A stretch of DNA of 64,000 bases from a virus, in the IMG/VR virus record IMGVR_UViG_3300042387_001967. One strand, 5' to 3'. A program made the translations under genes and the position numbers. Positions within the stretch are counted from its first letter, which is position 1, and every line of letters starts with the position of its first letter. A model generated the notes under the pieces. That model did not search any database. It was given only the letters and a program-made list of their open reading frames with translations, and was not told where the DNA came from. Below, piece after piece: positions 26,573 through 54,667 of the stretch.

Positions 26573-27429
26573 GGGAGTGTGTCCGGCGTCCAGTGAGCAA
26601 TGCGGCGATATGCCTTGGTGTCGATGACCGGCAGCGGAAACTGGTATCGCTCGTCCGACTGATTCAGGTGCTCGAGCGTCGCGTCGTAAGCGACCGGCAG
26701 CACACTGCGGAAGCGATACGGCTTGATCTCGTCGCTGATCAAGTAACGCACGTCTGTCGTGGGATCCACGAGCATGTGCCCGCGGGCCGGATGCGGAAAT
26801 GCCATGAGCCGGGCAGAGACCCTGAGCGTGTCTGCCGGCGAGAATTCCTCCGGATCATCCTTCAGCCCCTCGCCGTGCGCCGTGATGCTCATCCACGTGA
26901 GCACCGGCCGGTAAAAGCCGCCCTGAAATGCCATGCCGTAGGAACGCAGCGCGGGGTCCTCGACCGCGCACTCGCCTCCCTCCTTCTTGCCGGTGTCCGG
27001 GTCTGTCGCCAAGGACGGCGTGCCGAACTCGCGCGGGATGCAGTGCCACACAGGGAACCCGTTCACGACTCTCATCTGCGTGAATTCCTGGTGGATCATG
27101 GCGCGGATGATGCCGTATTCGCGCCGCGTGATGTCGCCCATGATCTGGAACGGCTCGGACAAAAAATCGCCGACCGACGCGATCAGCAGCAGCCGGTAAA
27201 ATCCCTCGGCCGAGCCTTTGTTCATGAACAGCGTCGCGTCCTGATACACTCCCACGCCGGAGGCAACGGGCGCGTCCGGATTGAGTTCTTTCCATGTCCC
27301 CTGCGTGCCGGTGGTCGAGAACGCGGCATACACGTTCCCCGCGGGCGCGTCGGACGCCATCTCCCAGGTGATCGCAGCGTTACGCGTTCCGTGGTTCGGA
27401 TAAATGCGGACGTTGCGGAATACGCTCAT
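26569..27429 (-). CDS. Neck / head-closure protein
   Basis: 286 aa with an Ig-like N-terminus and 'SYGMAFQGGFYRP'. Function is inferred from synteny. Confidence 0.5.
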   Translation of the reverse strand: MSVFRNVRIYPNHGTRNAAITWEMASDAPAGNVYAAFSTTGTQGTWKELNPDAPVASGVGVYQDATLFMNKGSAEGFYRLLLIASVGDFLSEPFQIMGDITRREYGIIRAMIHQEFTQMRVVNGFPVWHCIPREFGTPSLATDPDTGKKEGGECAVEDPALRSYGMAFQGGFYRPVLTWMSITAHGEGLKDDPEEFSPADTLRVSARLMAFPHPARGHMLVDPTTDVRYLISDEIKPYRFRSVLPVAYDATLEHLNQSDERYQFPLPVIDTKAYRRIAHWTPDTLP

Positions 27430-28028
27430 TGCGACTTAGGCAAGCCGAGGCTGTCGATGTGTTGCGCGGCCTGTTCGTATGGGTCAGATGACGTCTGCGC
27501 TGCGGTCGCGGCAGGCGCCCCTGTCGGAGCTGGCTTCTCACCCTCTCCCGTTAGATAGCCGCCAGCCATACCTCCGAACCCGGCAGTCATACCGCCGGCA
27601 AGGAGTTTACCGCCTACCCCGGCTCGCTCCACGGCTTTTCCGGTTTGCATGGCTTTGATCACGCGGGGAGTTGCATTGGCCGCAAGACGAGAAGCTCCTC
27701 CGAAGAAGCCTTTGGCGGTTGACGCGACGCCTGGCAGAAACGACAGCGCCCCCCATCCGAGGTTGCTGACGCCCGACCAGAAGTTGCCGTTCGAAAAATC
27801 CTTGACCGCCTTGTAGCCGTAGTAAGGGACGCCGGTGACAGGATTCGAACCGGCGGCTATATCCAGCGCCAACTCGCCAGTGTCACCCCATGTCCACCCT
27901 TTGCTGGGTGCGCCCGGCGCGACGGGCTGCGGCGCGCGGCCAGGCTGATACATCGGCGCGAACGGAAACGGCTCCGTGTTTGCGGCTTTCACCATCGGAT
28001 CCAATAGAGCAAATGGCGTCGGTGTCAT
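27426..28028 (-). CDS. Putative internal head protein with TPFAxL-KxA leader and Gly-rich hydrophobic segments
   Basis: 200 aa from ATG 28028 (ATGA overlap): MTPTPFALLDPMVKAAN. Confidence 0.55.
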   Translation of the reverse strand: MTPTPFALLDPMVKAANTEPFPFAPMYQPGRAPQPVAPGAPSKGWTWGDTGELALDIAAGSNPVTGVPYYGYKAVKDFSNGNFWSGVSNLGWGALSFLPGVASTAKGFFGGASRLAANATPRVIKAMQTGKAVERAGVGGKLLAGGMTAGFGGMAGGYLTGEGEKPAPTGAPAATAAQTSSDPYEQAAQHIDSLGLPKSQ

Positions 28029-28447
28029 CCTACGGCCCCCCATGCGCCTTCGAGGTTGGCGGTGACCTTCAAGTTCGTTGCAGCTTCCATAAATTCCGCC
28101 TCCAGTTTGTCGCGCAGGCGTTCGAGGTTCCTGAGCAGCGATCCCTGCACGCTGGCGTTGACGCCGCCGGCAGCGTAATCGAAATCGTTGATGCTCACGT
28201 TGCCGTGCCACCGGCGGTAGAGCGCCCACGCGATACCGTCGAAGAACACCGAGGAGTTGATCGGCAGTTTGTCCGACGTCACCTCGAAGCCCAGCGGTCG
28301 GATGGAGTTAAATTTTCGCGCACACTTGCTCATCGCCCACTCGATGTCAGGATCAGTGAACGCCAAGTCTGCGAGCACCAGGTGGTCCTCCGCCTGGCGA
28401 TCCATCATGTCCTCTCGGACGTCAGCGATAGCGATGTAGCTAGCCAT
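28025..28447 (-). CDS. Head-tail adaptor
   Basis: 140 aa. 'ADVREDMMDR...LAFTDPDIEWAM...FNSIRP...DFDYAAGGV' resembles adaptor proteins. Two genes after the MCP. Confidence 0.6.
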   Translation of the reverse strand: MASYIAIADVREDMMDRQAEDHLVLADLAFTDPDIEWAMSKCARKFNSIRPLGFEVTSDKLPINSSVFFDGIAWALYRRWHGNVSINDFDYAAGGVNASVQGSLLRNLERLRDKLEAEFMEAATNLKVTANLEGAWGAVG

Positions 28448-28450
28448 GCG

Positions 28451-29545
28451 TCAGTAGGTCGGGAAGAAGTCCCTGGTCAGTTGCTCACCGGAGCGCGGCG
28501 GGTGAGTTCGCCCGGTGGCGCCACCGCGCAGCAGCTTGGCTCTGTCTCGCGCCAGCCTGGAGTTTAACTCGTGACGTGCGAGACTTTCCTGGAGCGGCCC
28601 GATCCGGCGGTCCATTCCGCGCTGCACAGCGCCTGAATCGGCGAAAGGACCACGCCAATCACCTTCGCTCGCGGCCGCGGCCCACCGCCTCGGCGCGGCC
28701 CACCACGCCGTGCGTTGGTTCTCCAGATCCGCCTTACGCTTGGCGATCTGATCCATCATGCTTCGGCTGTGATCCTCCTGCATGTCCAGGCGGTCCACGG
28801 TCTTGTTGAATTTTTTATCGTAACCTTCGTGAGACCGCTCAAGTTCCTTCAAGTCGTAGTAGTCGTTTGAGCCGGCCCGGATCGTTCCTCCGTCGAGCGC
28901 CTCGCGCAGTTTTGCCATGCGAGCGACAGAACTGTCGCGATTCTTGTTCATGTCGAAAATGCTAGGCTCGTGCTCGCCAAGGCGGTTCGCATACATCTTC
29001 TCGTATTCGCTCGAGCTGAGACCGCCGGGGGGCAGGAACGAGTCTGCGCCATATCCGCCATATCCGCCCGTCAGCATGTCGTCCTTGTTCCACCACTTGG
29101 TGCCTGCGTATGTGCCGCCAATACCTCCCGCGAGGAGGCCCATACCGCCGATGAACGGATGCTTGGTCAGGAACGAAGGTTTGACTTTTGACGGGCCGAC
29201 CGCCGCCGCAGTCGCCCGACCCACGCCGCTCAGGGCGCCCCAGCCGGCTGTGGCGGCTGCCCGTGGCGCATCCCAAAGCACCGCTTTACCCAGGCGTCCC
29301 AGACCGCCCCAAAATGGACCTGCCGCCTTCTCCATATCCGCGTGCGGAATCAGCATCGCACGCATCTGCCCGGGGAACGAGGCAACCTTCGCCAGATATC
29401 CGACGGCGAATGCAGGCCGGGCATCTAGCTCCTGGTCGAGCGACTCGCGCTGCAACAGCTGCGCGGCGGCCTCCTTGCTTAGTCCGTTCTCGAAGCAAGT
29501 CGTCAAAAATGCAGTAACAAATCGCTGAGTCATGGGCTCTCTCAT
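28451..29545 (-). CDS. Putative internal head protein (KxA motifs, Gly zipper, coiled coil)
   Basis: 364 aa with SKEAAA and EKAAG. Confidence 0.55.
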   Translation of the reverse strand: MREPMTQRFVTAFLTTCFENGLSKEAAAQLLQRESLDQELDARPAFAVGYLAKVASFPGQMRAMLIPHADMEKAAGPFWGGLGRLGKAVLWDAPRAAATAGWGALSGVGRATAAAVGPSKVKPSFLTKHPFIGGMGLLAGGIGGTYAGTKWWNKDDMLTGGYGGYGADSFLPPGGLSSSEYEKMYANRLGEHEPSIFDMNKNRDSSVARMAKLREALDGGTIRAGSNDYYDLKELERSHEGYDKKFNKTVDRLDMQEDHSRSMMDQIAKRKADLENQRTAWWAAPRRWAAAASEGDWRGPFADSGAVQRGMDRRIGPLQESLARHELNSRLARDRAKLLRGGATGRTHPPRSGEQLTRDFFPTY

Positions 29546-29580
29546 GTGGGAAGGCTACTTTGAAAATCGGCGCGTGGCAA
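29546..29580 (-). promoter_or_regulatory. Sigma70-like leaderless promoter TTGCCA-17-TAGCCT-6-ATG
   Basis: -35 at 29575-29580, -10 at 29552-29557, ATG at 29545. Lies just after the MCP terminator. Confidence 0.62.
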
Positions 29581-29602
29581 TGCGAAAGGAACTTCGACGC
29601 AC

Positions 29603-29636
29603 AAAAAGAAAGCGCCGGCTGTTTCCAGCCGGCGCT
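29603..29636 (-). terminator. Intrinsic terminator after the major capsid gene
   Basis: 11-bp stem AGCGCCGGCTG, GAAA loop, CAGCCGGCGCT, followed by TTCTTTTT. Confidence 0.85.
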
Positions 29637-29661
29637 CCTTGTTGAATGGTGGAGGCGATCC

Positions 29662-30630
29662 TTACGCGATGCCAGTCATCGTGTAGGTCAGCTTCTGCAC
29701 GCCGAGGGTGTTGCCGATCGTGAGACCGACCTGCTCCTGGGCACGCATGCGGATGATGTCGTACTCCTTCTTGATGGTGACGGTGATGTCTTCGAGCATC
29801 AGCGCGTTGCCAAGGAATTCCTTGGGCGCGAACTGATACATGACGCCGTTTGCGACGAGTCCGTTCTTGATGGTGCTGACGAACGGGACGCCGAACATCT
29901 CGAACTTCTCGAGGGCCTTGAGACCCTTGCGGGCCACGTCCTGCGACAAGTCGCCGCCCATCTCCAAACGCTCCCAACCGAGAAACTCGTTGGCAGTGCG
30001 TTGATTGACGAGGACGACACCGATCGGCAGCTGGCGCTCAATGAGGTAGCTGACGGCGCGCTTCAGGCCCTTGCGGGAGAAGGTAGCGCTGGTCATCGTG
30101 ACGTTCTGGTAGGCGCCCGGAGAGGCACTTTCCACCGTCGCGTAGGCCGTGGCACCACCCACGATGCGGTCGATCTCCGTAAGGAACGAAGTGTCTTCCG
30201 CCGTGTGGATGTCACGCAGCATGTTGTCGTTGACGATCTGCCGAAGGTCCGTCTTGTAGGTCCGGAGCTGGTTGATGTTCTTCGTCGCTTCCTCGGTCGT
30301 GATCACCGACAGGAGCACCACATACTTCTCCGCGCGATACGAGAAGGAGTTCGGGGTGTCGTTGTAGGGGATGACGCGAGCAGGCGGCGAGTCCGGTTCG
30401 AGTTCGTACCAAACTCCGGGGAGTTCCGAGTCCCCGAAATAATCGAGGTCCTCGTTGGTAATCATGTCGAATGACAGAATCGCGCGCTGGAAGCCCTCCT
30501 CCCGGATTTGTGTCCGGGTGGCCTTCGAGGTCGCGGTGGATGCTTTCTTCACAACGCCGTCGTCCGATGAGAGGACGTCGTCGATGAGTTGCTTCTTGAT
30601 GAGCAGGTCTTTTGCAGCTTGTTCGTTCAT
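29662..30630 (-). CDS. Major capsid protein (HK97-like)
   Basis: 322 aa, 'TKNINQLRTYKTDLRQIVNDNMLRDIHTAED' backbone helix. Strong terminator follows; decoration, scaffold and protease genes precede. Confidence 0.72.
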   Translation of the reverse strand: MNEQAAKDLLIKKQLIDDVLSSDDGVVKKASTATSKATRTQIREEGFQRAILSFDMITNEDLDYFGDSELPGVWYELEPDSPPARVIPYNDTPNSFSYRAEKYVVLLSVITTEEATKNINQLRTYKTDLRQIVNDNMLRDIHTAEDTSFLTEIDRIVGGATAYATVESASPGAYQNVTMTSATFSRKGLKRAVSYLIERQLPIGVVLVNQRTANEFLGWERLEMGGDLSQDVARKGLKALEKFEMFGVPFVSTIKNGLVANGVMYQFAPKEFLGNALMLEDITVTIKKEYDIIRMRAQEQVGLTIGNTLGVQKLTYTMTGIA

Positions 30631-30652
30631 GGTCGTTTGTTACCGGTTAGAG

Positions 30653-31222
30653 TTAGGCTGCTTTGATCTGTCCATGGCGGGCCGTCTTGAACTGGAGCAC
30701 TTCGGCGTCTGCTGCTGTCGCCGTAGGCAAAGTCTTGCCCACATACGGGAGCGAAGCATCCGAGCCCGTGCCGATCTTGGTCACGTAGCCGATGATGTAG
30801 TCGCCCTCGGTCGCGTGCGTCACGAGGCCGCCGACCTTGATGGCGAGGGGCTCGTTCAACACGTAAGCGCCGCCGCTCTTGTCGAAATATCCAGTTTGGA
30901 CTTCGTAATCGTCGGAGCAATCAAGCCCAACGATTCCGCCGGCCGCCTGCACGTCGTGAGAATCCTGGTCGTGGGTGGCGATAAAGACGGACAGGGCTTC
31001 GACGACTGCATCAGCGTCGACTCCCTTACGGAACGCGCCGGCGGTCGAAACCGCGTTGACGAGTCCTGTGTCCTTCACTATCACCATTCCAGACCGGATC
31101 GCTTCACCGTCGATAGGCGGGGCGAGAGACGACAACTTGACAGGTTCCGTGGGTTGATTCCCGCGGATGATCTGTAGGGGCACTCGATCGCGCGAATAGC
31201 GCCGATTAGTTCCGTATAACAT
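30653..31222 (-). CDS. Capsid decoration / cement protein
   Basis: 189 aa beta-tulip-like ('AIRSGMVI', 'YVLNEPLAIKVGGLVTHA...IIGYVTK'), directly before the MCP. Confidence 0.55.
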   Translation of the reverse strand: MLYGTNRRYSRDRVPLQIIRGNQPTEPVKLSSLAPPIDGEAIRSGMVIVKDTGLVNAVSTAGAFRKGVDADAVVEALSVFIATHDQDSHDVQAAGGIVGLDCSDDYEVQTGYFDKSGGAYVLNEPLAIKVGGLVTHATEGDYIIGYVTKIGTGSDASLPYVGKTLPTATAADAEVLQFKTARHGQIKAA

Positions 31223-31261
31223 GTTGTTGTTTCAGGTATGTGGTGTTTTTGATCCGGCACC

Positions 31262-31675
31262 TTAGCCAAGACCAGCCTCAGTGCAGCACCGTTCCCAAAG
31301 GTCGGTTCTGCTTTCGGATGATCCGGCTTCAGTCCGGGTTGCGGCTGGCTTATCGACCAGGTCCCCGTCCTTGCCGAACAAGTCGACGTAGAGCGGAAAC
31401 ACGGCCCTGGAGGCCAGCTTCTCCAGAAACTCGAGCAGTTCAGCAGGGCCGGCCTGCTCGAGAGATTTTGCGAGGTCCTTTCCAGTGTTGTCCTGGAAGG
31501 CGCCTGTCTTCATGAGTTCCTTGGCGACTGCAGCGCAGCGAACGGACGCCACTTTCACCAGGGTCACTGGCTCGGGGCGGCGGTGCGCGAGTTCTGCAGA
31601 TTTCACGGCTGTTTCAGCGAGGTCGATGGCATCATCGATCACACTGAGCATCTCCGTGAACGCCTTGTTGTTCAT
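31262..31675 (-). CDS. Small head-associated protein
   Basis: 137 aa helical protein with VKSA, VKVAS and EKLAS. Confidence 0.5.
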   Translation of the reverse strand: MNNKAFTEMLSVIDDAIDLAETAVKSAELAHRRPEPVTLVKVASVRCAAVAKELMKTGAFQDNTGKDLAKSLEQAGPAELLEFLEKLASRAVFPLYVDLFGKDGDLVDKPAATRTEAGSSESRTDLWERCCTEAGLG

Positions 31676-31699
31676 GTCGTAAATGAGTTGCGAATGGGT

Positions 31700-32821
31700 T
31701 TAGACTGCTGCTTCCTCCGGCATGCCTTCGGGCGCGGCACCTTCGCCGCCGGACGTCGCTTGAACAGCTTCGAGGATGTCCTCCTCGGTGATCTGACCGC
31801 TGGCGAGCATTTCCTGCAGCAGCGCCATGATCTCTTCCTCGCTGAGGGATTCGCCGCCCATCGGCAATGCTTCGTCGGCTGGCGAGGCGCCATCGGCTGG
31901 CGGCTCAGCACCTTCCGGGGCTCCGGCTTCGTCGGCCGCGGCCATGAGCGCCGCATCGTCCATGCCCTGCGCGTAGGCTGCCTTGAGCAGCGGATGATCG
32001 AGTGACGCGAGCGTCTCCTGATGCAGCGCGGCCTGCTTGATGATGGCGTCCGCGTGCGCCTCGGTCACGCCAGCTTCCAGCAGGCTCTCATGAATTTCGT
32101 GCACCTTGCGTCCGAGATCGTCGTAAGCGGCCTGCTTGATCTGTTCACCCTCGCCGAAGACGTGCGAGGCGTCGATGGCCTCGAGAATCTGCGCGCGGGC
32201 TGCGTCCTCGCCTGCCTGCTTCTCTAGGAGGTCATGCGCCATGCGGATGCCCTCGTCAGTGCTCACGAACACGCGGGCGATTTTGCACAGCACTTCCGTG
32301 CTGAGGTCCAGCGTGGAAGCCCCGGTGCCGGCCTGCTTCTCAGTCTGCCGTGCGGGCTGTCTTGCGGGAGCGGACGCAGCGAAGCGCTGAGCGAGCGCGG
32401 GATTCGACTGCACCAGCGCTGCGCGGATACTCGCGGCGCGTTTGGAAAGGTTTGCGGCTTTCAGCGTCGTGCCGTCTGCGGGCTGGTCCGCCTTCAACTC
32501 CGCTTCACCCGGATCCTTGGGAATGCTGGCCTTGCTCGCGGTGATACCGCCCTGGCCGTCGGCGACGGTCATACGATCGGGTCTGCCGGCCGGAACCTGG
32601 GCCCCTTTGCGCGCCGTGCCGTCTGCCGGCTGCAGGCGCTTCAGTTCAGCTTCGCCGACATCCTTGGGAATGCTGGCCTTGCTCGCGGTGATACCGCCCT
32701 GGCCGTCGGCGACGGTCATACGGTCTGGTGCGCCTTCTCCGGCTGCGGATTTCTCGGCTGCGATCTTTTCCGCATACTGGCGAAGCGCGGCAGCCACTCG
32801 GTGTTGATTGGGTTTGGACAT
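31700..32821 (-). CDS. Scaffold-like protein
   Basis: Likely start MSKPNQ at 32821. Many KxA motifs, acidic C-terminus, lies between protease and MCP. Confidence 0.55.
   Translation of the reverse strand: MSKPNQHRVAAALRQYAEKIAAEKSAAGEGAPDRMTVADGQGGITASKASIPKDVGEAELKRLQPADGTARKGAQVPAGRPDRMTVADGQGGITASKASIPKDPGEAELKADQPADGTTLKAANLSKRAASIRAALVQSNPALAQRFAASAPARQPARQTEKQAGTGASTLDLSTEVLCKIARVFVSTDEGIRMAHDLLEKQAGEDAARAQILEAIDASHVFGEGEQIKQAAYDDLGRKVHEIHESLLEAGVTEAHADAIIKQAALHQETLASLDHPLLKAAYAQGMDDAALMAAADEAGAPEGAEPPADGASPADEALPMGGESLSEEEIMALLQEMLASGQITEEDILEAVQATSGGEGAAPEGMPEEAAV
32513..32722. repeat. 63-bp identical direct repeat with a 147-bp (49-aa) period
   Basis: atccttgggaatgctggccttgctcgcggtgataccgccctggccgtcggcgacggtcatacg at 32513 and 32660. 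Confidence 0.9.
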
Positions 32822-32878
32822 GTTAGTCGTGGGTTTGTTGGTGTGGAGGCTTTCGCCAGTGGATGTGATCTTGTGGTG

Positions 32879-32907
32879 AGTATGTATCAAAAATGGGCGG
32901 ATGGCAA
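32879..32907 (-). promoter_or_regulatory. Sigma70-like promoter TTGCCA-17-CATACT for the scaffold-decoration-MCP unit
   Basis: -35 at 32902-32907, -10 at 32879-32884, followed by an A/C-rich leader. Confidence 0.5.
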
Positions 32908-32910
32908 TCT

Positions 32911-34377
32911 TTATGCGCGACGAATCATCAAACTCGCGGCGAGCCCTCGAAACAGTGTGCCGGCGTTGACGTCCGGCAGGTCTTTGATCTGGTGTGCGGC
33001 TTTCACTAAGTAGTGTCCGTAAGCTTCTATCAGACCGCCGTAGTAGTCGTCGATATTTTTTTTGAGGCCCGGACGCGCAGCGATGCTGCCGCTCTTGATG
33101 ATCACCACGCGCATCGCACGATCAGACGCCTGACCTGTGCCCATTCCAAGGTCGCCGCCAACCTCGTCCATGAGACGATCGATGTTGTCCTTGCCGGGCG
33201 AGAAGGAGCAGCCTGTTTCGTCCGGCGCCACAGCGTCAGCGACATCCTCGCCGCACGCGCAGCCGCCGCTGTGCATCATCCCCGCCAGCAGCGAAGGCAG
33301 CTTGATTTCAGCAGCGTCGCACAGTGCCGCGTTCTTCTCGATGTCGGCTATCTTCTGTCCGGTCACGAGCGAAGCGAACGTGTAAAAATTGATGACCATG
33401 GCGCGCTTGGCCAGCTCGCCTCCGGCGTTGCGGAAGTCCACCTCGGCCAGTGTGTCTATCTGGTCGGCTGAAAGATCTTGCGGCGCCAGCTTGCACAGCA
33501 CTTCCCGCGTCACCGCGTCAGCACGCTTCACGAATTCATCAGCCGCGGCGAGCTTCTGCAGTGTGAGATTTTCCCACTCGCTGAACGGCACGACGCGCGC
33601 ATTGCCGAACTGAAACGCGGCCCATTGTGCGCCGGTAATGATCGCGTCGCCCGACGCAGCCTTCGCCATCTCGCCCTCCGGAAATGTGTAGCTCAGGAAA
33701 GTGGCGATGCGGTCAGCGCGTCGTTTGACTTCGCTGATGTCGAAGAACTTCACGTCGTCCTCGTTGCGGGCGTAGGCATACTTCTCAAACCCATCCACGA
33801 ACCGCAGCATGTTGTTCTTCAGATGGCTGCAGTAGTCCGTTGTGCGCTTGCTCTTTTTCTTGCAGCACGAGCACTCGTCATGCGGGAGGCGCATGGACAT
33901 CGACCAAGACAGCTCCTCGCCGGCCTTCGCCTTCTTATACATGTCCGGCGCCTTGTCCTTTTCCACCCAGGCGATCAACTCGCCGCGGTGCATCTTCGGA
34001 TTCACCCGGGCCAGTCGGACGGTGCCGATGCCCTGAGTCACGGGGTTGCGATTTTTGTGTTCGCGGAATACGCATCCAAATTTTTCGAACGTGCCGTGGT
34101 GACGGTCCAGCGATCGCCGGCTGGCTGAGTCGCCGTTGCGGTTCGGCCCAAAAGTTTCTTCCTCGCCCATCGTGATCAGATGCACGCCAAACTGATCATC
34201 CGGAGGCATGTGCTCCTGCAGATCCAGGCGCGAGATGACGTCCGATGCCGACTTCGTAAATCCACTGCGGCCCCGGTCGCGCTCGAAGAATGTGAAAGCC
34301 TTGCCGTCAGCCGCCCGCAGCAGCTCCGCGTGGTCGTCCGTGGCGAATGATTTTTCGAGTTCGCGTTCGATGTGCAT
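32911..34377 (-). CDS. Prohead (capsid maturation) protease, HK97/assemblin-fold type
   Basis: PNRNGD, FREHKN (His), SWSMSM (Ser), a CSCC...YCSH zinc site and FFDISEV...ADRIA. Lies upstream of scaffold and MCP. Confidence 0.7.
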   Translation of the reverse strand: MHIERELEKSFATDDHAELLRAADGKAFTFFERDRGRSGFTKSASDVISRLDLQEHMPPDDQFGVHLITMGEEETFGPNRNGDSASRRSLDRHHGTFEKFGCVFREHKNRNPVTQGIGTVRLARVNPKMHRGELIAWVEKDKAPDMYKKAKAGEELSWSMSMRLPHDECSCCKKKSKRTTDYCSHLKNNMLRFVDGFEKYAYARNEDDVKFFDISEVKRRADRIATFLSYTFPEGEMAKAASGDAIITGAQWAAFQFGNARVVPFSEWENLTLQKLAAADEFVKRADAVTREVLCKLAPQDLSADQIDTLAEVDFRNAGGELAKRAMVINFYTFASLVTGQKIADIEKNAALCDAAEIKLPSLLAGMMHSGGCACGEDVADAVAPDETGCSFSPGKDNIDRLMDEVGGDLGMGTGQASDRAMRVVIIKSGSIAARPGLKKNIDDYYGGLIEAYGHYLVKAAHQIKDLPDVNAGTLFRGLAASLMIRRA

Positions 34378-34379
34378 GG

Positions 34380-35189
34380 TCAGGCTTCGGAAGTCTTGTT
34401 GGTGATCAGCGCGCCGATGATCGCCGGAATGCCGGCGGCCGCCAGTCCTATCGCGCCGCGTCCGATCGCGCGCGGCGTCGACTGGCCCAGGATGCCCAGT
34501 CCACGGCGTCGCACGGTCGACAGAGCGCCTTGCGCACTCTGCGCCTTCTCAGACGAGAGTCCGGCGCGCTCCAGTAGTTTGCCCACGCTGCCCTCCGCGA
34601 CGTTGGAGGATGGAAGACCGGCCATGCGGCGAAGCTGGTCAGCTTGCGGTTGCTGCGCGGTCGGGAGAGCGCGGATGGCATCCGCGATTTCGTCCGCGCT
34701 CGCGGTGTTCGCCCAAGCAGTGTCCTTGTTCAGCAGCGGAAGCAGACGCTTGCTGTAGTCATCCGTCGAGCCGGCCCCGATGACAGAGCGACCGCGCGTC
34801 GCCGCCAGTGCGCCCAGGCCAGACGAAGCGGCGGTGATCGGCGAGAACGCCACGTTCTTCACTGTGGTGGACAGCGGCCCTTCGTCGTTGGGTGCTCCTG
34901 ACAAAACCTTGGAACTGTCGGACATGTTGCCCACGGTTTTCTCCAGCCCTTTCGCTCCCAGGTAATGCGCGCCGCCGGCCAGGCCTCCCGCGATCAGCGC
35001 GTTGCGCAGGATGCGGCCCAAGTAGCCCACGCGGCTCTCGCCCGAATCAGCGCGCCGCCGGCCCGACAGCGCACCGCCCGCGATCGCGCCGACGCCGCCG
35101 GACATGAGGTAGGGAACCAGCGATTTGAAGGCGTCCGAGTTCAGGTAGCTCGCAGCCTGATCGCGCAGATTGGTAGGTTTGTCAGTCAT
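34380..35189 (-). CDS. Gly-zipper membrane-like head protein
   Basis: 269 aa with four Gly/Ala-rich hydrophobic helices. Confidence 0.55.
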   Translation of the reverse strand: MTDKPTNLRDQAASYLNSDAFKSLVPYLMSGGVGAIAGGALSGRRRADSGESRVGYLGRILRNALIAGGLAGGAHYLGAKGLEKTVGNMSDSSKVLSGAPNDEGPLSTTVKNVAFSPITAASSGLGALAATRGRSVIGAGSTDDYSKRLLPLLNKDTAWANTASADEIADAIRALPTAQQPQADQLRRMAGLPSSNVAEGSVGKLLERAGLSSEKAQSAQGALSTVRRRGLGILGQSTPRAIGRGAIGLAAAGIPAIIGALITNKTSEA

Positions 35190-35196
35190 TGAAATG

Positions 35197-36765: not shown

Positions 36766-36774
36766 AATGGAGGG

Positions 36775-37722
36775 CTAGACATCCACGTAACCGCCGCCGC
36801 TGTCCGCGACCAGCTGGTCCAATACCATCTCCTTGTTCATCGACAGCGCCTGGCGGAACGCCTCGCTGTAGATCGGGACGATGCCTGTGAGTGTCGGCTC
36901 CTCCTTGTCCGCGCCGCTTTGGCGGGACGCCGCGAGCAACGTCAGCGCGCGGCTCACGCCGACGTTGCGCTGATTCAGCAGACTCGTGTGCGCCAAGATG
37001 AGACCGTTACCCATCAGGAACCGGGTCAGCTCGGATTCGCGATCGTTGCTGGCCGCCAGCTTCCGCAGATACGTGTGGTCGCCGATCCCGGACAGATAGG
37101 CCGTCAGGTCCATGTCGCGGTGGTTGTAAGCCACCCGCTTGATGAGGTCCTCGTGAGTCGAGTTGCGCAGGTAGTGCTCGTCGAACTCAACCAGGCGCGT
37201 GTTGGGATACACCTCCTGGGCGAGATACAGCGCGTCAGACCTGCGATCGATGACGTTGAAAAACAGGACCTCAAACGCGTCCAGCGTGCCCACCGACACC
37301 CCGGTCTTCAGCGAGACCTCCCTGAGATGTGTTTCGGCGTTGCCATCCGGGCGGAACGCCAGCAGCATCGCCTTGAGGTGCTGGCGCAGGTTTGGGGCAC
37401 CGTTCACGAACTGTGCGAGATGGTAGGCTTCGACGACGTGTTGGTCGTAGTTTTTCCACGGATCCATGCGCAGCAGATACGCCTTGTGCACCCAAAGATC
37501 GCGCCCTTGCAGCATGAGCGGAAACTCCATGCCCCGGTTCGCGAACTGCAGCGCGATATACCAGCCGTAGTTGGTCTGGATGTATTTCGCCAGGAACCGA
37601 TCTCGCGCGGTATCGTGCAGCGGAGAGAAGCGCCGCTGTTGTCCCAGCAGCCCAGCCCGCTCGATCTTCGTCGTCCACTCCGGACTCATCGACGCAAGCA
37701 AATCAATCGTGTAGGCGTTCAC
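36775..37722 (-). CDS. Hypothetical protein
   Basis: 315 aa, GTG start, coupled within the head block. Confidence 0.55.
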   Translation of the reverse strand: MNAYTIDLLASMSPEWTTKIERAGLLGQQRRFSPLHDTARDRFLAKYIQTNYGWYIALQFANRGMEFPLMLQGRDLWVHKAYLLRMDPWKNYDQHVVEAYHLAQFVNGAPNLRQHLKAMLLAFRPDGNAETHLREVSLKTGVSVGTLDAFEVLFFNVIDRRSDALYLAQEVYPNTRLVEFDEHYLRNSTHEDLIKRVAYNHRDMDLTAYLSGIGDHTYLRKLAASNDRESELTRFLMGNGLILAHTSLLNQRNVGVSRALTLLAASRQSGADKEEPTLTGIVPIYSEAFRQALSMNKEMVLDQLVADSGGGYVDV

Positions 37723-37726
37723 GGTG

Positions 37727-40297
37727 TCAGTTTTCCTGCGCCGAATACTGATCCGGTTTGAACTGCTGCAGCATGCGCAGCAGATTTTCGCCAGCGCGGG
37801 TCGCGAGTTCCGCGAGTTCCTGCTCGAAGTCGATCAGGTCTTCCTTGCCGTAGATCTCCTCGAAGTCCGCCGGCCGGTAGCGCAGCAGAAACAGAGTGCG
37901 GAAGTAGCGGTCCACGCCGGCCTCGAAGTCCGGGATGTAGAGCTTGATCTGATCGACAATGCCGTGACTGGTGGTGGCCATCTGCGACACAGCGCCGTGG
38001 TCCAGGATGTGCGGCATACCATACTGACTCGACATCTGCGCCAGTTCCTCGGGCGAACTGTTCATGATCATGTCCATCGGCAGCAGCGACTCGGCGGTCT
38101 CAGAATTCCTACCGCGCGGTCCCTGATAGGTGTCGCCGTAGCGTGACTGCTGGTCCGGGCGTCGCGGTGTGTGCGTGGAGAGAATCTGCTGCTGAGGCGC
38201 GTCCAGCCGGACGTTCAGCTCGGGATCAAAGCTCTGCACCCACTGCTCCATGCCCTCCGGCCTGGTCAGGTATGCCTGCTTGGTGACGGAGTCGAAGATG
38301 CGGTAGGTCACGTCGCCGTCGACAGCCTTGTTGAGAATCTTGCCTGCGACATCGGTGCGCAGCGAGAAGTCTTCCGCCAGTGCGAGATGCGCCTCCAGCC
38401 ACCCGAGGTTGCGAGCCGCCTTGAGCAGCGTGCCGTCCTCGCGATGCTCCACGTCGAATGTGGGCCCGGCCTTCGGACGCACCGTCACCTCGTTGGCGGT
38501 CGTGATGCCGCCGGCCGTGCGCATCCACTGCTCGACGCCGGCTGACGACATCGGGAACCGTGTGCACTTGGGCTCGACCTTGCGGACTCCGTCGTCGTCG
38601 TCACGCTTCACGTCACAGTCCACTTCCAGGAAGAACGTCTCATCGCTGAGGTATCGACCGGACGTCTCACCGCGACCAGGCGCGTAGAACAGCTTGGTCT
38701 GGTCGCCGTAGCCGATGGAGATCGTGATCACGGAGCACTCACCGTCCTTCGCAATGTCGGCCACGTGAAATGGGCGCGAGATGCTGAGGTCCCGGGTGTC
38801 GAGCGCGACGTAGCACTTCCCGGTCGAAATGGCGTCGCCAGTCACTGCCTTGGCATTTGTGTCCTGGTCGATCGTTTCATCGCCGAACACATCCTCGCCC
38901 GAGGGCAGCCTGAACAACTGCTTGTCGCTCGGGAAGTAGGCATACTCGATTTTGCTGGGCGAGCCGCTGCCGCCGCAGGGCGACGGTCCGCTGTTGTCGA
39001 AAAGCAGGTGGTCGCTCTCGCGCAGCAGGAGTGCTTCCTCCGTGTCACCATTTGCCATGAGCAGTTGCACCTTGCCCGGGGACGACAGTTCCTTGATGGT
39101 GCCGGCGCCGACTTCCTCGATGACGGTGTTGACGCTGTCGGCGAGCCGGTGGTCGACCAGGTCGTAGCCTTTGTCGAAGATGCGCTCGCGCTGGGCCGCG
39201 GATTTGGCCAGCTCCGGCGACAGGATGATGGAGATCGCAGGACGCGGGCCGGACGCCTCTTTGGCCAGCCAGCCGTTCACCGTCTCGAGATCCTCCTTCG
39301 TGTAATTGGATGCGACGGCCGCGGCGACGCCCGGACTGTTGCCGATGAATGCGGCGAGCTTCTCCAGTGCCTCGGGGCCGTGCGCGTCGATCACCAGCGG
39401 CAGCAGCTTGCGCATCGGCGCGTCGTCCGCGCTGTGCAGCATGAGCTCCCTCCAGATCGAACCGTCGGCCGCGGCCTTCTTGAAAGCTTCCGCGTGCGGC
39501 GCGTTCTCTTTCTTCTGCGTCGTAACGCGAAGAGCGTGGTGGCGCATCAAATCGCGCAGCTGTTCGCGAGTAAGTAGATTTTTCTCTTCGATGTGATCCA
39601 GCTTCAGGCCAGTGATGGCTTTGTCGGCCAATTCGTCCGACATGAGATGGCGGTTCTGCTTGCCGCTTGCGATTGCTTCATGCACCTCGTCATCAGACTC
39701 GTAAATTTCCGCGTCAGCATGCGTCTCGACATCCTCCGCGCCGGGCTTCTTGCTCTGTTTGTCCCCAGCATACTTCTCGGCGAGATACTCGCGCGTCTCA
39801 GCGTCCGCCTTCTCATTGATATCGGCTAATGTCAGACGATCAGCCGCATACTTGACGCGCTGCGGATAGGCCAGCCGGTCCATGTAGGCATCCGCCTGTC
39901 GATACCGGTTGCGGTCGACGGGCTCGCCGGCGCTCTCGTGATTGCCGCGCACCAGGTATGCGCACCAGTCCTCGGTGAGTGGGACGAAGCGTTTGACGTC
40001 CGTGCGGTAGAGCATGTCGGCCGCCTTGATCTCGCCGTTGACGAAAAACACCGGGGCGTAGAGCAGGTTGCTGTTCACCCGGAACGCGAAGATGCCGACC
40101 ATCTTGGTCGCCTTCTCGTTGCGATGCACGATCTCGAAGCCGAGCCGGAACGGATCCTGGAACAGAATCTTGGCCTTGTTGGCGACGATTGCGTAGCTCT
40201 GGTCCATGAAGGACTTCTGGACAGCGCCGTAGTCGACGCCCTCCTGCGAGGCCGCCTGCTTCCACTGGTAGTTGGGGTCGATGATTTCGGTGGTCAT
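37727..40297 (-). CDS. Large head-associated structural protein of unknown function
   Basis: 856 aa with WKQAAS, VKYAA, FKKAAA, AKEAS, AKSAA and TKQAY. Confidence 0.58.
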   Translation of the reverse strand: MTTEIIDPNYQWKQAASQEGVDYGAVQKSFMDQSYAIVANKAKILFQDPFRLGFEIVHRNEKATKMVGIFAFRVNSNLLYAPVFFVNGEIKAADMLYRTDVKRFVPLTEDWCAYLVRGNHESAGEPVDRNRYRQADAYMDRLAYPQRVKYAADRLTLADINEKADAETREYLAEKYAGDKQSKKPGAEDVETHADAEIYESDDEVHEAIASGKQNRHLMSDELADKAITGLKLDHIEEKNLLTREQLRDLMRHHALRVTTQKKENAPHAEAFKKAAADGSIWRELMLHSADDAPMRKLLPLVIDAHGPEALEKLAAFIGNSPGVAAAVASNYTKEDLETVNGWLAKEASGPRPAISIILSPELAKSAAQRERIFDKGYDLVDHRLADSVNTVIEEVGAGTIKELSSPGKVQLLMANGDTEEALLLRESDHLLFDNSGPSPCGGSGSPSKIEYAYFPSDKQLFRLPSGEDVFGDETIDQDTNAKAVTGDAISTGKCYVALDTRDLSISRPFHVADIAKDGECSVITISIGYGDQTKLFYAPGRGETSGRYLSDETFFLEVDCDVKRDDDDGVRKVEPKCTRFPMSSAGVEQWMRTAGGITTANEVTVRPKAGPTFDVEHREDGTLLKAARNLGWLEAHLALAEDFSLRTDVAGKILNKAVDGDVTYRIFDSVTKQAYLTRPEGMEQWVQSFDPELNVRLDAPQQQILSTHTPRRPDQQSRYGDTYQGPRGRNSETAESLLPMDMIMNSSPEELAQMSSQYGMPHILDHGAVSQMATTSHGIVDQIKLYIPDFEAGVDRYFRTLFLLRYRPADFEEIYGKEDLIDFEQELAELATRAGENLLRMLQQFKPDQYSAQEN

Positions 40298-40314
40298 GGT
40301 GTGTAATTGGCGGG

Positions 40315-40995
40315 TCAGAACAAATTGGTGCTCCCGGGGTGCTTCTCTCGATGCTTCCTTGCTGCCTCGATTATTGCGTGCTGCTTGTCGGACATCTGAG
40401 CACCTCCGTTTCCTTGCTGTTCCTGCTGTTTGAATAATTTGCTTCTCAACTGCTCCAATCCGGTGACCCCGCCGACGCCAATCGCGCCCATACCGGCCAG
40501 ATTACCAGCCTGTCCTGCGCGACCAAGCGCCGTCGGCAACGGTGTCATTTGCGTTCCGTGCAGCAGATGGGAACCGCTTTCTATCATATCCCTAGGAGCG
40601 CGCAAAGCGCCGCGTCCAAAGTTGAGAAGCGCCTTGAGGATGTTGCTTCCTGCGCCTGCACTTTTACCCATTCGCCGATGCTCCATGCCGACGGTCGGCA
40701 CCAGCGGATCCAGGTCCGCGTAATCCGAGATCGCGTTGCTTACGGCCGCGCCGCCAACACCGACCCCGCCGCCGATCAGCGCGCCGACCAGTGCGCGCAG
40801 CAGGACGGACTTCTGATCCTTGCCGCCCAGCGCAGAAGGCGCTCCAACAGCTGAAGCCGCACCCAACATCGCGCCTGGTATCGCGCCGGCCAGTCCACCC
40901 GCCGCGAGTTTTAGGTTTTTCCTTCGCTGCCTTACTTCGTCGTAGGAGCGTGCGGATGCTGATTTTTCGAGCAGTGCGAAAGGTGTCATGATCAT
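40315..40995 (-). CDS. TPFAxL-KxA leader protein with Gly zippers
   Basis: Starts MIMTPFALLEKSAS; internal GKSAG; two hydrophobic modules. Confidence 0.58.
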   Translation of the reverse strand: MIMTPFALLEKSASARSYDEVRQRRKNLKLAAGGLAGAIPGAMLGAASAVGAPSALGGKDQKSVLLRALVGALIGGGVGVGGAAVSNAISDYADLDPLVPTVGMEHRRMGKSAGAGSNILKALLNFGRGALRAPRDMIESGSHLLHGTQMTPLPTALGRAGQAGNLAGMGAIGVGGVTGLEQLRSKLFKQQEQQGNGGAQMSDKQHAIIEAARKHREKHPGSTNLF

Positions 40996-41037
40996 GGATG
41001 GTAGTCGGTTTTGCGGCGAAGGGAAGGTTGACGTTGA

Positions 41038-42081
41038 TCAAATGTAGTGACGGTTCTCGTTCGCGTCATACTCGTAGTAGTTGGTGTCGCCGCCTTTTTT
41101 CCAACTGCGTGCGATCCCACTGAGGAACCCAGGCTGAAACCGGCGGCTGTTCTGTTGCTCCCACGTTCCGATGGTGCCGGGCAGTTGTTTCTCGATTCGG
41201 TCAGCCAGCAGCGTTGGGTCCATCTTCAGCGCCATGCGCTCGAGTCCCGTCATCTTGTCCAGCCCCTGCTGTATCTTGGCCTGGGCGCCGGCGTAGCCGC
41301 GCGTGCGGACGCTCTGCTCGTCGTAGGGCTTGTCGCGTAAAATGGAGTGCCCCAGCATTCCTGCTCCAATCGTTGGAAACAGCCACGGAAACACGTTGGA
41401 GAAAACCTTGCCGAAACTGCCGGACTTCAGCATCGCTTGCGGCAGCATCAGTCCGTGCATGCGCCGGTCCACGCGGTCGTTGATCAGCGTGTCAGGATCC
41501 TCGAACAGCGACTGGATATACTTCAATTTGGACAGCGGCTTGTAGGGCTTGCTGGAGTATTGATCCGCCAGGTCCGCAGTCGCCGCGTCGTTCTGGCGAA
41601 GATACTGCCGCGCCAGTCCGGGGCGAGTGAGATAGTTAGAATCCATCTGCCCAAGGGACATCATGTCGGCCCCGGCCCCGCGCGCGCCGATGAGCACGTC
41701 CTCCTGCAACCTAGCCCGGTTTCCCGGGCGGTTCGCGCGATACGCGCTGATCAGGCTCGGCGCCGTCATCAGTGCCCCCAGCACTGGCATGGAGGCATTC
41801 ATCGCAAGGTTCGATCCCGGCACGTCGTATCCGGCGAGTCCCGCCGCCATCCCGCCAAGGCCGTAGCCCATCAGCCCCTTGTTGAGCGTGGTCATCTTGT
41901 CCGTGACCGGGTCGTGAAACAGGCGCGACGCTTTCCCCCAGAAGCTGCCTGGTTGTGTCTTCGTCGCTACGCGCTTCCAGAGACCGTCGCGCACCAGACT
42001 GTGCAGGCCTCGCAGAATTGTTCCGCCGGAGGACGACTTGGTCATGTCAGCCTCGCTCGCGAGTTGGGCGAAAGCAGTCAT
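41038..42081 (-). CDS. Leader-bearing head protein with hydrophobic segments
   Basis: Starts MTAFAQLASEADMTKSSS. Confidence 0.55.
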   Translation of the reverse strand: MTAFAQLASEADMTKSSSGGTILRGLHSLVRDGLWKRVATKTQPGSFWGKASRLFHDPVTDKMTTLNKGLMGYGLGGMAAGLAGYDVPGSNLAMNASMPVLGALMTAPSLISAYRANRPGNRARLQEDVLIGARGAGADMMSLGQMDSNYLTRPGLARQYLRQNDAATADLADQYSSKPYKPLSKLKYIQSLFEDPDTLINDRVDRRMHGLMLPQAMLKSGSFGKVFSNVFPWLFPTIGAGMLGHSILRDKPYDEQSVRTRGYAGAQAKIQQGLDKMTGLERMALKMDPTLLADRIEKQLPGTIGTWEQQNSRRFQPGFLSGIARSWKKGGDTNYYEYDANENRHYI

Positions 42082-42092
42082 ACCCGGATGGC

Positions 42093-43754
42093 TCAGATGG
42101 TCTGGCGCAGTCGGGCCAAGATGGATGCCTTGTTCTGCTCGAGCATCGCCTGCAGCGCTGCGGCCGACGGCTGCTCGCCCTGTCCCCTGAACACATTCAA
42201 GATCCTTCCCAGGATGCCGGGATCTTGCGGCGCGTTCTGCAGCGCTGCCTGAATGCCGTAGTCGACGCCGGTGTTGTAGCCTTTATCGAGACCTTCGGTC
42301 AGCCCGCTGTTGCGGCCCATGCGGTTGCTGCCGTAGAGCGCGACGCCGCCTGCGCCGGCGCCGAGTCCCAGTTTAACACCCGGCGAAAGGCCTTCCCTCT
42401 CTATCTTGTTCAGAATTTCACGAGCTTCCGGCGACGCCTTCGCAGTAGCAGTCCCTGGCAGCGCCTTCGTCACAGGATTCGGAAGCATCGTCATCTTAAT
42501 CTCGGGTCCTGCACGTCTCGTCGCGGCGCTTACGGCGGGTTGCCCACGTTTCGCAACTGCCGACCCCACCCGTTTCAACACCTCCAGCCCGCCTGCTTCC
42601 TTCTGCATGTCGAAGCACGCGAAGGGCGTCAGGCTGGCGCGCTTCGTTTGCCAGGGAGCATTCGCAGCCGCCAGCACGCTGCCGCCGCTACGCTGAGCAT
42701 TTTGCATGTTCGTCCACTTGGCGACGTCCATTTTACTATTTGGATTATAAGCGTTCGCTTTGCCTTTGCCGTGATATTTGGCCCACATTGCAGGATCTGG
42801 AGCGCCACTAGGTGCTGGCGCAGCGCCCGGCCGGGCCGCTGTCGTTCCCGCCCACGCCGGTGCGGCTGCTGGGGGACTGCCCGCTCCAAGGGCCGCCATT
42901 GCCGGGGGTGCAGGTGTGTCACTCGGTCCGGCTGCCGGGGGCTGGTTCAGCTTACCTTGCCACTGCGGCTTACCATACGTATCCGGAGTTCCGTAGGCCC
43001 ACGACGGCTTGGCTCCGGAATCGCCTCCAAGCGGCGACGAACTCGGCGAAATCGGCGACGGCGAAAGCGGCGGTGAACCGCCTCCAAGAGTTATCAGCTG
43101 CGGCGAACTAGGTTCACTGGTTGCGCCACCCCCAGTTCCGGTCGGCTCATCGAAGCCGCCTGCACTGCCGCCGCTGGTCATAGGGGCGGCAGCAGGGGCG
43201 GCAGCTGGTGCCGCTTTTCCAGAGGTGGCATCGATGAGGCCTTTCCCCATATTCGCAGCCCCATCACCCAATGCACCGACGGCCCCGGGAATCAGTCCAG
43301 CAGTGTGTCCAACTGCCCCGACTACGCCGCCAGCCGCTTGTAATCCCCCACCCACAGCCTGTCCCACGTTGCGACCGACAGCCTGCAGGCCATCCCTGCC
43401 GCCATTCCATGCACCATCCGCCGCGCCCTGCCCGACCGCTCCCCAGTCGATGTCACCAGGTTGTTGAAATTGCCGCTTCAGCGCGTTCGCGCCGCCCGAT
43501 ATCATACCGCCAGCAGCGCGAAAAGGAGTCGCTATCCCTTGAGCGGCGGCACCTAGAGCGCCTGACGCCGCATTACCCACGCCTGATACGGTGTTACCGA
43601 TCGCGTTACCGATCGGTTTGATATTGTTGTTCCAAAAATTGTCGAACGCCGGTCCCGCCTGTTTCACGAGCGGATTCAGATGTCGTGCGTGCCGTCTGCC
43701 GGCACTTTTTGGCATGAGTTCGAGCTTAGCAAACGGCGTGATGTAGCGATTCAT
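42093..43754 (-). CDS. Gly/Pro-rich KxA polyprotein-like head protein
   Basis: Likely start MNRYITPFAKLELMPKSAG at 43754. Internal TKRASLTPFACFDMQKEAG. Confidence 0.58.
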   Translation of the reverse strand: MNRYITPFAKLELMPKSAGRRHARHLNPLVKQAGPAFDNFWNNNIKPIGNAIGNTVSGVGNAASGALGAAAQGIATPFRAAGGMISGGANALKRQFQQPGDIDWGAVGQGAADGAWNGGRDGLQAVGRNVGQAVGGGLQAAGGVVGAVGHTAGLIPGAVGALGDGAANMGKGLIDATSGKAAPAAAPAAAPMTSGGSAGGFDEPTGTGGGATSEPSSPQLITLGGGSPPLSPSPISPSSSPLGGDSGAKPSWAYGTPDTYGKPQWQGKLNQPPAAGPSDTPAPPAMAALGAGSPPAAAPAWAGTTAARPGAAPAPSGAPDPAMWAKYHGKGKANAYNPNSKMDVAKWTNMQNAQRSGGSVLAAANAPWQTKRASLTPFACFDMQKEAGGLEVLKRVGSAVAKRGQPAVSAATRRAGPEIKMTMLPNPVTKALPGTATAKASPEAREILNKIEREGLSPGVKLGLGAGAGGVALYGSNRMGRNSGLTEGLDKGYNTGVDYGIQAALQNAPQDPGILGRILNVFRGQGEQPSAAALQAMLEQNKASILARLRQTI

Positions 43755-43790
43755 GCCGGGCATTCTACGCGAAACCAAACACGCAGGCAA
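43755..43790 (-). promoter_or_regulatory. Sigma70-like leaderless promoter TTGCCT-17-TAGAAT-7-ATG
   Basis: -35 at 43785-43790, -10 at 43762-43767, ATG at 43754. Confidence 0.65.
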
Positions 43791-43802
43791 TATCAATTAC
43801 GC

Positions 43803-45656: not shown

Positions 45657-45691
45657 CCCGGAACGATACCCGCGAATGTCGCAAGCGGCAA
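45657..45691 (-). promoter_or_regulatory. Sigma70-like leaderless promoter TTGCCG-17-TATCGT-6-ATG
   Basis: -35 at 45686-45691, -10 at 45663-45668, ATG at 45656. Confidence 0.6.
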
Positions 45692-45704
45692 GCTCAGAAC
45701 GCTA

Positions 45705-54007: not shown

Positions 54008-54042
54008 TCCGGGAGAGTAGCGGGATTGTGCAACGAGTTCAA
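54008..54042 (-). promoter_or_regulatory. Sigma70-like leaderless promoter TTGAAC-17-TACTCT-6-GTG
   Basis: -35 at 54037-54042, -10 at 54014-54019, GTG at 54007. Confidence 0.58.
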
Positions 54043-54063
54043 CCACGTAAAGAAGAGCGACCA

Positions 54064-54092
54064 CCGCCGGCTCCCAGGGCGGGAGCCGGCGG
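54064..54092 (-). terminator. 12-bp GC hairpin (terminator-like)
   Basis: CCGCCGGCTCCC, 5-nt loop, GGGAGCCGGCGG just after the stop at 54109. The U tract is weak and displaced. Confidence 0.5.
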
Positions 54093-54108
54093 GCGCGGCG
54101 GAAGCGGC

Positions 54109-54652: not shown

Positions 54653-54667
54653 CATAAAATGAGGGTT

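Follow-up and report, generated by a model that had tools for sequence, protein, structure and literature searches.

Why should several phage proteins that otherwise appear unrelated begin with nearly the same short peptide, and what might read it? The question is raised by a 64,000-nucleotide stretch of IMG/VR virus record IMGVR_UViG_3300042387_001967 (the window, by which we mean that whole stretch), in which a sequence-only reading had noticed such a peptide, ending in KxA, at the start of four proteins and once more inside one of them, and had likened it to the cleaved capsid-targeting sequence (CTS) of phage T4 internal proteins. The sequence of origin is an IMG/VR virus record of 184,016 base pairs (bp) with direct terminal repeats, and the window corresponds to its bases 4365-68364 on the reverse strand; the head-region genes all lie on the minus strand of the window. 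Based on the motif statistics, conservation, gene order and structural models presented below, we propose that the peptide is a two-part removable propeptide of internal head or ejection-type proteins, in which a downstream element (box 2) is cut by a protease and an upstream element (box 1) serves for docking, a reading that we hold as a whole to be probable, though well short of certain.

A two-part leader on otherwise unrelated proteins

The leader is defined by box 1, [ST]-[PA]-F-A-x-L, and box 2, hydrophobic-x-K-[SAQE]-A-small, with 0-10 residues between them. The two boxes overlap in the shortest form, of which TPFALLEKSAS is an example: the Leu of box 1 serves there as the box 2 hydrophobic residue too. 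All five copies listed by the sequence-only reading are where it had placed them, on the minus strand, and they are given here together with an additional box 2 that follows the first leader of the 553-amino-acid (aa) protein.

27978..28028, minus strand: leader of the 200-aa protein (start 28028), MTPTPFALLDPMVKAAN, divided as MTP-TPFALL-DP-MVKAAN; E 1e-4 with the leader hidden Markov model (HMM)
40954..40995, minus strand: leader of the 226-aa protein (start 40995), MIMTPFALLEKSAS, divided as MIM-TPFAL-LEKSAS
42028..42081, minus strand: leader of the 347-aa protein (start 42081), MTAFAQLASEADMTKSSS, divided as M-TAFAQL-ASEAD-MTKSSS
43698..43754, minus strand: first leader of the 553-aa protein (start 43754), MNRYITPFAKLELMPKSAG, divided as MNRYI-TPFAKL-EL-MPKSAG
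43653..43670, minus strand: second box 2 of the 553-aa protein, LVKQAG, at the same place as a second complete tandem leader in relatives
42591..42644, minus strand: internal leader of the 553-aa protein (T codon 42629), KRASLTPFACFDMQKEAG, divided as K-R-A-S-L-TPFACF-D-MQKEAG, with KRAS resembling a K-box upstream and box 2 downstream

The ATG of the 200-aa gene and the stop codon of the gene upstream share bases (ATGA), and the 226-aa protein has a further box 2, MGKSAG, at residue 109. In the six-frame translation of the 184-kilobase (kb) genome the string T[PA]FA occurs 17 times, five of them at leader sites, and a composite pattern (box 1, at most 9 residues, then K-x-[AS]) gives 7 matches where 1.15 +/- 1.0 are expected and 100 shuffles give a maximum of 4; the two matches beyond the five leaders fall in non-coding frames. 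At the DNA level the five leader sites share no more than their first and second codon positions, the third ones being different, and selection is therefore on the peptide and not on a DNA element. A conserved promoter or repeat at the leaders was considered and is ruled out by these variable third positions together with the dissimilarity of the upstream DNA. The carrier proteins had been described as otherwise unrelated, and this holds at the level of BLASTP: with the leaders removed, the four proteins have no significant similarity to one another, the best pair reaching E 0.013 through Gly/Ala-rich sequence.

Conservation of the leader in related genomes

The leader is retained in orthologues down to approximately 36-40% identity and in 10 related contigs, and in two complete genomes it is confined to the head gene block. 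The closest comparison is provided by G001, a 200-kb relative (loci L003 and L008) whose portal is 65% identical, and in which the orthologous genes and two additional ones bear the leader, all 7 of its composite-pattern matches falling in leader genes; its orthologue of the 200-aa protein begins MTPFARLEPMMLKRAG. The 347-aa protein has 26 homologues with a lowest identity of 36%, to which a profile scan of IMG/VR added just one relative. Within this family, box 1 is well kept among the 24 full N-termini (T in 21/24, F in 21/24, A in 20/24, L in 23/24) and is followed by a gapped, variable spacer and then by a hydrophobic residue and a Lys (Lys15) present in 27/27, with Ala or Ser at Lys+2, again in 27/27.

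Eight further contigs (L004-L006 and L021-L025) bear the leader on 2-5 genes each, always between RNA polymerase beta' and portal in the stretches examined, and across all such stretches leader genes lie either in this interval or just after the capsid gene. The mature parts of the leader proteins fall into about 10 clusters that BLAST keeps separate, from 11 genomes. Four of these, to which the polyprotein, the 347-aa protein, the 200-aa protein and a Gly-rich protein belong, are conserved families; another cluster has two members, in L005 and L022, and the remainder are variable small proteins, small Gly-rich ones among them. In L023 (11146-12682) three tandem paralogues of 226, 123 and 116 aa share the identical leader MTPFAALGELEKSGA, which looks like a local expansion of the leader-bearing set. 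In L005 (12272-13111) and L022 (11822-12307) the leader MTPFALLEKSA has, in frame ahead of it, a small domain with Cys and His residues and the box 2-like sequence LTKSS[NS]; this upstream domain may be an extra cargo domain fused before the leader, or the start may have been mis-called.

Box 2 is the predicted cut site of a head maturation protease

The KxA named by the sequence-only reading is indeed present at the end of the leader but understates the element, which extends over six residues, hydrophobic-x-K-[SAQE]-A-[SAG], and is widespread in the head module rather than special to the leaders. In the 178 genes of this genome it occurs 33 times versus 4.7 +/- 2.0 expected from within-protein shuffles (maximum 10), and in G001 34 times versus 4.5 +/- 1.9, an approximately 7-fold enrichment in both genomes, while control motifs (reversed, K-to-R, K-to-E and with the Lys shifted) are all at expectation. 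The sites are found mostly in head-module genes, namely those for the portal, a 522-aa protein, the protease, the scaffold-like protein, a 364-aa protein and the large proteins at 47892-59212, with some elsewhere, and numerous sites are conserved in position between this genome and G001, including both sites of the scaffold-like protein and LSKEAA of the 364-aa protein. The site near the N-terminus of the capsid protein lies in the motif G-V-V-K-x-A-S (residues 25-31), in which five capsid proteins, that of Salmonella phage Arash (30% identity) included, have G25, V27, K28 and A30 without exception. This site and the two in the protease are as follows.

30538..30555, minus strand: N-terminal box 2 of the capsid protein, VVKKAS (residues 26-31)
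34243..34260, minus strand: protease site 1, FTKSAS (residues 40-45), a probable N-terminal self-processing site
33652..33669, minus strand: protease site 2, MAKAAS (residues 237-242), a probable self-processing site between the protease and C-terminal domains

The protease itself is a 488-aa protein with a weak match (E 1.6e-4) to the 'head maturation protease' PHROG phrog_18299, and it is encoded in the head module near the scaffold-like and capsid genes, in the order probable portal ... protease, scaffold-like ... capsid. Its family comprises 2183 representatives (clusters at 50% identity, from a library of 1.8 billion proteins) and includes the protein of Arash. The AlphaFold2 (AF2) model has a predicted local distance difference test score (pLDDT) of 83 and a confident N-terminal domain, for which Foldseek returns T4 gp21 (5jbl) as the top match with probability 1.0 and E 1e-3. 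Alignment to T4 gp21 by VIA-align gives Z 12.6 and a root-mean-square deviation of 3.5 Å over 151 residues, the next matches being herpesvirus proteases with Z 5-6.5, and the modelled protease domain thus has the gp21/assemblin fold. In an alignment of 50 family members with 27-80% identity, H107 and S159 are invariant and H66 is nearly so, these being candidate catalytic residues; the acidic residues D83, E133, D167 and D213 are invariant as well.

Both box 2 sites of the protease lie in low-confidence, probably disordered segments of the model. The Lys-[SQ]-Ala core of site 1, with a small residue after it, is kept in nearly all 50 members and lies in a loop of low pLDDT (residues 37-39). 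Site 2 is within the disordered linker 222-244, and there A241 is invariant, with conservation of 90% or more at K239, A240 and S242. We infer that the protease processes itself at both of these linkers. Taken with the enrichment and the conserved capsid site, the pattern indicates that the phage's own head protease very probably cuts at box 2. Cleavage most likely occurs directly after the Lys, judging by register with the T4 (L/I-x-E) and SPN3US (A-x-E) motifs; a cut two residues further on, after the Ala, is possible, for which the conserved Ala and the small residue that follows leave room. Since the Lys motif is enriched (33 versus 4.7) and the corresponding Glu motif, hydrophobic-x-E-[SAQE]-A-small, is not (8 versus 5.7 in the genes of this genome), the specificity of the protease appears to have shifted from Glu to Lys, such that it would work like gp21 as a Lys-type variant. 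A literature search for Lys-type cleavage by gp21-like proteases returned nothing relevant.

Three observations concern the protease family and box 2 more widely. Approximately 25 of the best 150 family representatives are 850-930 aa long, and their match breaks into two near query residues 161-173, directly past the invariant Ser159, and these long homologues probably hold inteins beside the putative catalytic serine. The 845-aa protein (window 47892-50429) opens directly with a box 2 (MSKQAS), behind which lies a glycine-zipper segment, and at genome positions 126512-136468, outside the window and far from the head module, there are several genes with a conserved box 2 near the N-terminus, for example those for a 73-aa and a 159-aa protein. 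The 845-aa protein and the products of these distant genes may be cut by the protease too, without having a box 1.

Box 1 as an element of its own

Box 1 does not accompany box 2 as a rule. Around 83 box 2-like sites from the two genomes there is no notable enrichment at any position upstream of -3, and most box 2 sites, including those of the capsid protein, the scaffold-like protein, the portal and the protease, have no box 1. In both complete genomes the leader HMM gives 11 matches with E of 0.035 or below, all of them known leader genes, the top matches being circular in that the HMM was built from the very sequences it recovers; the next match (E 0.58) has box 2 only, and the HMM finds no further leader genes elsewhere in the two genomes. 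That the spacer varies in length likewise speaks for two elements. Box 1 is therefore an element distinct from box 2, and by analogy with T4 it is most likely a capsid-targeting or anchoring signal, the chief rival being a role in protease docking.

As regards the proteins that carry the leader, they are rich in Gly and Ala (20-34%), hydrophobic stretches resembling glycine zippers occur in the 226-aa and 553-aa proteins, and searches of the four against PHROGs and Pfam give just weak matches to tape-measure-like Gly-rich proteins. The AF2 model of the 347-aa protein has a moderate pLDDT of 65, with residues 1-24 below 50, so that the leader is predicted to be flexible.

Internal and tandem leaders in the 553-aa protein

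The 553-aa protein differs from the other carriers in having more than one leader. Six orthologues (in L003, L004, L006, L021, L024 and L025) contain 2-3 copies each at HMM E <1, and that of L004 up to five if weaker pattern matches are counted. Tandem leaders occur near the N-terminus in L003, with HPFAQLDPFLKEAG, and likewise in L024 and L025. The internal leader is at position 389 of the stop-to-stop open reading frame in both the window and G001, the C-terminal domain (about 160-200 residues) has a full leader ahead of it in L004, L005 and L021 as well, and homologues retain KRASLTPFACFD. In 5/5 junction copies box 1 is preceded, at a distance of 1-3 residues, by the end of a K-x-[AG]-small box, compared with 7.8% of background windows; with this K-box upstream and box 2 downstream, the internal leader is therefore bracketed by predicted cut sites.

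The sequence-only reading had taken the internal copy to mark two leader-bearing genes that had become fused. The internal leader is real, but a recent fusion is rejected since the same junction is present in all five orthologues in which it was found. A search for separate, stand-alone versions of a gene for the C-terminal piece returned only fragments, or calls at an internal Met that keep the upstream residues. With predicted cut sites on both sides of its internal leader, the protein looks more like a polyprotein than like the product of a recent fusion. The bracketing also lends modest support to an anchoring role for box 1 over pure protease docking, since the internal leader would behave exactly like the leaders at true N-termini.

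Proposed mechanism and rival explanations

We now put forward the mechanism that we consider probable for the leader. Box 1, lying 0-10 residues ahead of box 2, would dock a subset of proteins in the core of the prohead, whether to the scaffold, the protease or the portal, and the docked proteins would stay there until freed by the protease. The gp21-type protease would recognize and cut box 2 of the leader, and at the same kind of site it would trim the N-terminus of the capsid protein, cut the scaffold-like protein and itself be processed. In the 553-aa protein, a first cut at the K-box before the internal leader would release a C-terminal piece that has a leader close to its new N-terminus, to be taken off by a second cut.

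Several points weigh against this proposal. The composite and box patterns were derived and refined after the data had been seen. Neither fold nor function could be assigned to the leader proteins by PHROGs, by Pfam or by Foldseek of the 347-aa model against viral models, so that their assignment as internal or ejection proteins comes only from their position beside the portal gene and from their Gly/Ala-rich hydrophobic segments. Arash has no box 1 (TPFA) in the 21-kb head region examined, though box 2-like sites are present there. Internal and tandem copies, moreover, would be superfluous for targeting a protein that already has a leader at its N-terminus, and they fit protease docking equally well.

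This last point is the core of the chief rival, in which box 1 is an exosite that docks the protease and makes some box 2 sites better or earlier substrates, with entry into the prohead achieved by other means, such as the mature domains. Such an exosite would explain why internal and tandem box 1 copies are always 0-10 residues upstream of box 2 when an N-terminal leader would by itself meet any targeting need, and the N-terminal propeptide of the protease is loosely similar to a leader, with a hydrophobic-x-x-L-hydrophobic-acidic stretch before site 1 (YRFALIE...MTKSA in one member). That similarity is by eye, however, and the leader HMM does not score the propeptide as a leader, for which reason we rejected the propeptide as a leader in disguise. 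Most predicted cut sites, those of the capsid protein, scaffold-like protein, portal and protease, also manage without box 1, a spacer varying from 0 to 10 residues suits a single continuous binding groove poorly, and internal leaders flanked by cut sites would come out as free peptides just as N-terminal ones would. We consider the exosite rather unlikely on balance, and continue to prefer docking in the prohead core by a leader that is later removed.

Removal is itself in question if the leader is permanent, that is, an uncleaved N-terminal peptide through which the proteins bind the portal or one another, as in an ejection complex, its likeness to box 2 being incidental. The clustering of leader genes beside the portal gene would suit such a peptide, but every leader ends in the same 7-fold enriched motif that marks the disordered linkers of the protease and the N-terminus of the capsid protein, and its Lys is invariant in all 27 homologues, making permanence highly improbable. 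It is also improbable that the leader is a relic of common descent, kept at the N-termini of diverged paralogues, or a signal for a host factor such as a chaperone or a host protease. A host-read signal has a precedent in staphylococcal phage 80alpha with its L27-type leader. Distant paralogy is conceivable for the small Gly/Ala-rich proteins, and in L023 three tandem paralogues do have identical leaders. Conservation is nevertheless limited to the leader, the mature parts having no detectable similarity, the synonymous codon differences speak against recent duplication, and a host factor is hard to reconcile with a phage that has its own matching protease carrying the same motif. A two-part leader cut by that protease thus remains the reading that we favor.

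Comparison with known systems

The T4 CTS is bipartite, residues 4 and 7 being needed for targeting and residues 8 and 10 for processing, and gp21 has self-cleavage motifs near its N- and C-terminal ends (PMC9026906). The head proteases of T4 and SPN3US recognize a three-residue motif that is set by P3 and P1 and ends in Glu (PMC9026906, PMC10052503). The parallel with T4 that the sequence-only reading drew holds at every point that can be checked from sequence, with a gp21-fold protease in the genome, a leader that ends at its probable cut site, conservation in orthologues, confinement to the head block and a two-part layout. Specifically, both peptides are short and N-terminal on proteins that are otherwise unrelated (the head-internal location being deduced here from gene position), both end at a cut site of a gp21-fold protease (predicted in the present case), both have the targeting part upstream and the processing part downstream, and both are carried by a variable set of genes, ours resembling the variable genes for internal proteins with a CTS in T4-type phages. 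By inspection the two sequences have nothing in common, and the relation is one of function and not of homology. The leader differs in having Lys where T4 has Glu, with a conserved Ala and small residue after it, in its variable spacer, in its tandem copies and copies inside a polyprotein, and in being limited to 4-5 genes per genome, all in the head gene block.

Among the giant phages, the head proteases phiKZ gp175 and SPN3US gp245 process at the motif (S/A/G)-x-E or A-x-E (PMC10052503, PMC9026906). These systems, like the one predicted here, combine a gp21-related protease and a short P3/P1 motif with many head proteins as substrates, including the portal, capsid protein, ejection proteins and the protease, and several motifs may be present per propeptide. 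A further likeness is the multisubunit RNA polymerase carried by the present phage, which is virion-borne in its relative Arash (PMC10585845). In contrast, the phiKZ and SPN3US proteases cut after Glu, no common leader resembling box 1 has been described for them, and their propeptides are mostly long (111-254 residues). In phage P1, the N-terminal ~30 residues of DarB suffice to load a reporter into the capsid, much as we suppose for the leader, but no short motif common to several proteins and no coupled cut site are described (PMC9024508).

The nearest cultured relatives are Salmonella phage Arash (OQ632216) and Vibrio phages D69, D181 and D148, with capsid proteins of 28-30% identity and with homologues of the capsid protein, the protease family and RNA polymerase beta'. 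Lys-type box 2 sites, such as MEKSAG, LTKQAA, MTKQAS and LVKEAG, are found in the head proteins of Arash. Its head proteins and RNA polymerase are listed as virion components in a paper that does not mention proteolytic processing (PMC10585845). We considered the 'coverage' column of that list as a check on propeptide removal and set it aside, in that it reaches 100% with two peptides and is thus not sequence coverage (PMC10585845).

The head gene block

The genes from RNA polymerase beta' to the 200-aa protein are arranged as follows.

43803-45656, minus strand: RNA polymerase beta' piece (Pfam RNA_pol_Rpb1_5)
42093-43754, minus strand: 553-aa polyprotein-like protein, leader-bearing
41038-42081, minus strand: 347-aa helical protein, leader-bearing
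40315-40995, minus strand: 226-aa Gly/Ala-rich protein, leader-bearing
37727-40297, minus strand: probable portal, 856 aa, so named from size and position only, with no family match; three box 2 sites
34380-37722, minus strand: three genes, no role assigned
32911-34377, minus strand: head maturation protease, 488 aa, with a gp21-fold domain (about residues 45-220) and a helical C-terminal domain
31700-32890, minus strand: scaffold-like protein, 396 aa, its role suggested by position and composition only; box 2 sites LEKQAG and IIKQAA
30653-31675, minus strand: two small genes
29662-30630, minus strand: major capsid protein (phrog_2522; tblastn match to the Arash capsid protein)
28451-29545, minus strand: 364-aa head-module protein with box 2 LSKEAA (residue 22) and MEKAAG (residue 71), without a full leader
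28025-28447, minus strand: 140-aa protein
27426-28028, minus strand: 200-aa protein, leader-bearing

Three of the four leader genes (for the 553-aa, 347-aa and 226-aa proteins) are directly upstream of the probable portal gene, and the order of leader genes and portal is the same in L003-L006 and L022-L025. A tblastn search with the portal against cultured phages gave no match. At 856 aa it is longer than the 683-811 aa of its relatives, with much of the excess at residues 150-270, just before the first of its three box 2 sites (residues 272-370). The start codons of the head genes examined (window 27975-45700) have no obvious Shine-Dalgarno sequence upstream. In L004 (4626-7592) the RNA polymerase beta' piece is 988 aa, as against 617 aa here, and with a LAGLIDADG_3 match it probably holds an intein.

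Implications

To our knowledge, T4 is the only phage in which cleavable capsid-targeting leaders have been tested by experiment, P1 offering a comparable signal. The present analysis adds a leader that is defined in sequence, consists of two parts and belongs to a distant lineage of phages that carry an RNA polymerase, together with a predicted code for the protease that would remove it. With this code one can predict which proteins are trimmed, including pieces of the RNA polymerase and motif-bearing proteins elsewhere in the genome, and box 2 improves the annotation of mature protein ends over more than 2000 protein clusters. We know of no earlier case of Lys-type specificity in a protease of the gp21 fold, and if cleavage after Lys is true, this would be the first such enzyme and a natural case of a change in the specificity pocket.

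The leader could serve as a tool for loading capsids, given a cultured pair of host and phage, and if box 1 is a true transferable address it would be usable for loading foreign proteins. In its widest form our proposal is a tentative one, possible but somewhat short of probable: that a large and almost wholly uncultured group of phages, represented by the 2183-cluster protease family and including Arash, re-tuned its head protease from Glu to Lys, and that one branch of it added a transferable capsid address, [ST][PA]FAxL, with its own receptor in the core, by which swappable membrane-active cargo and the pieces of a polyprotein would be brought into the head.

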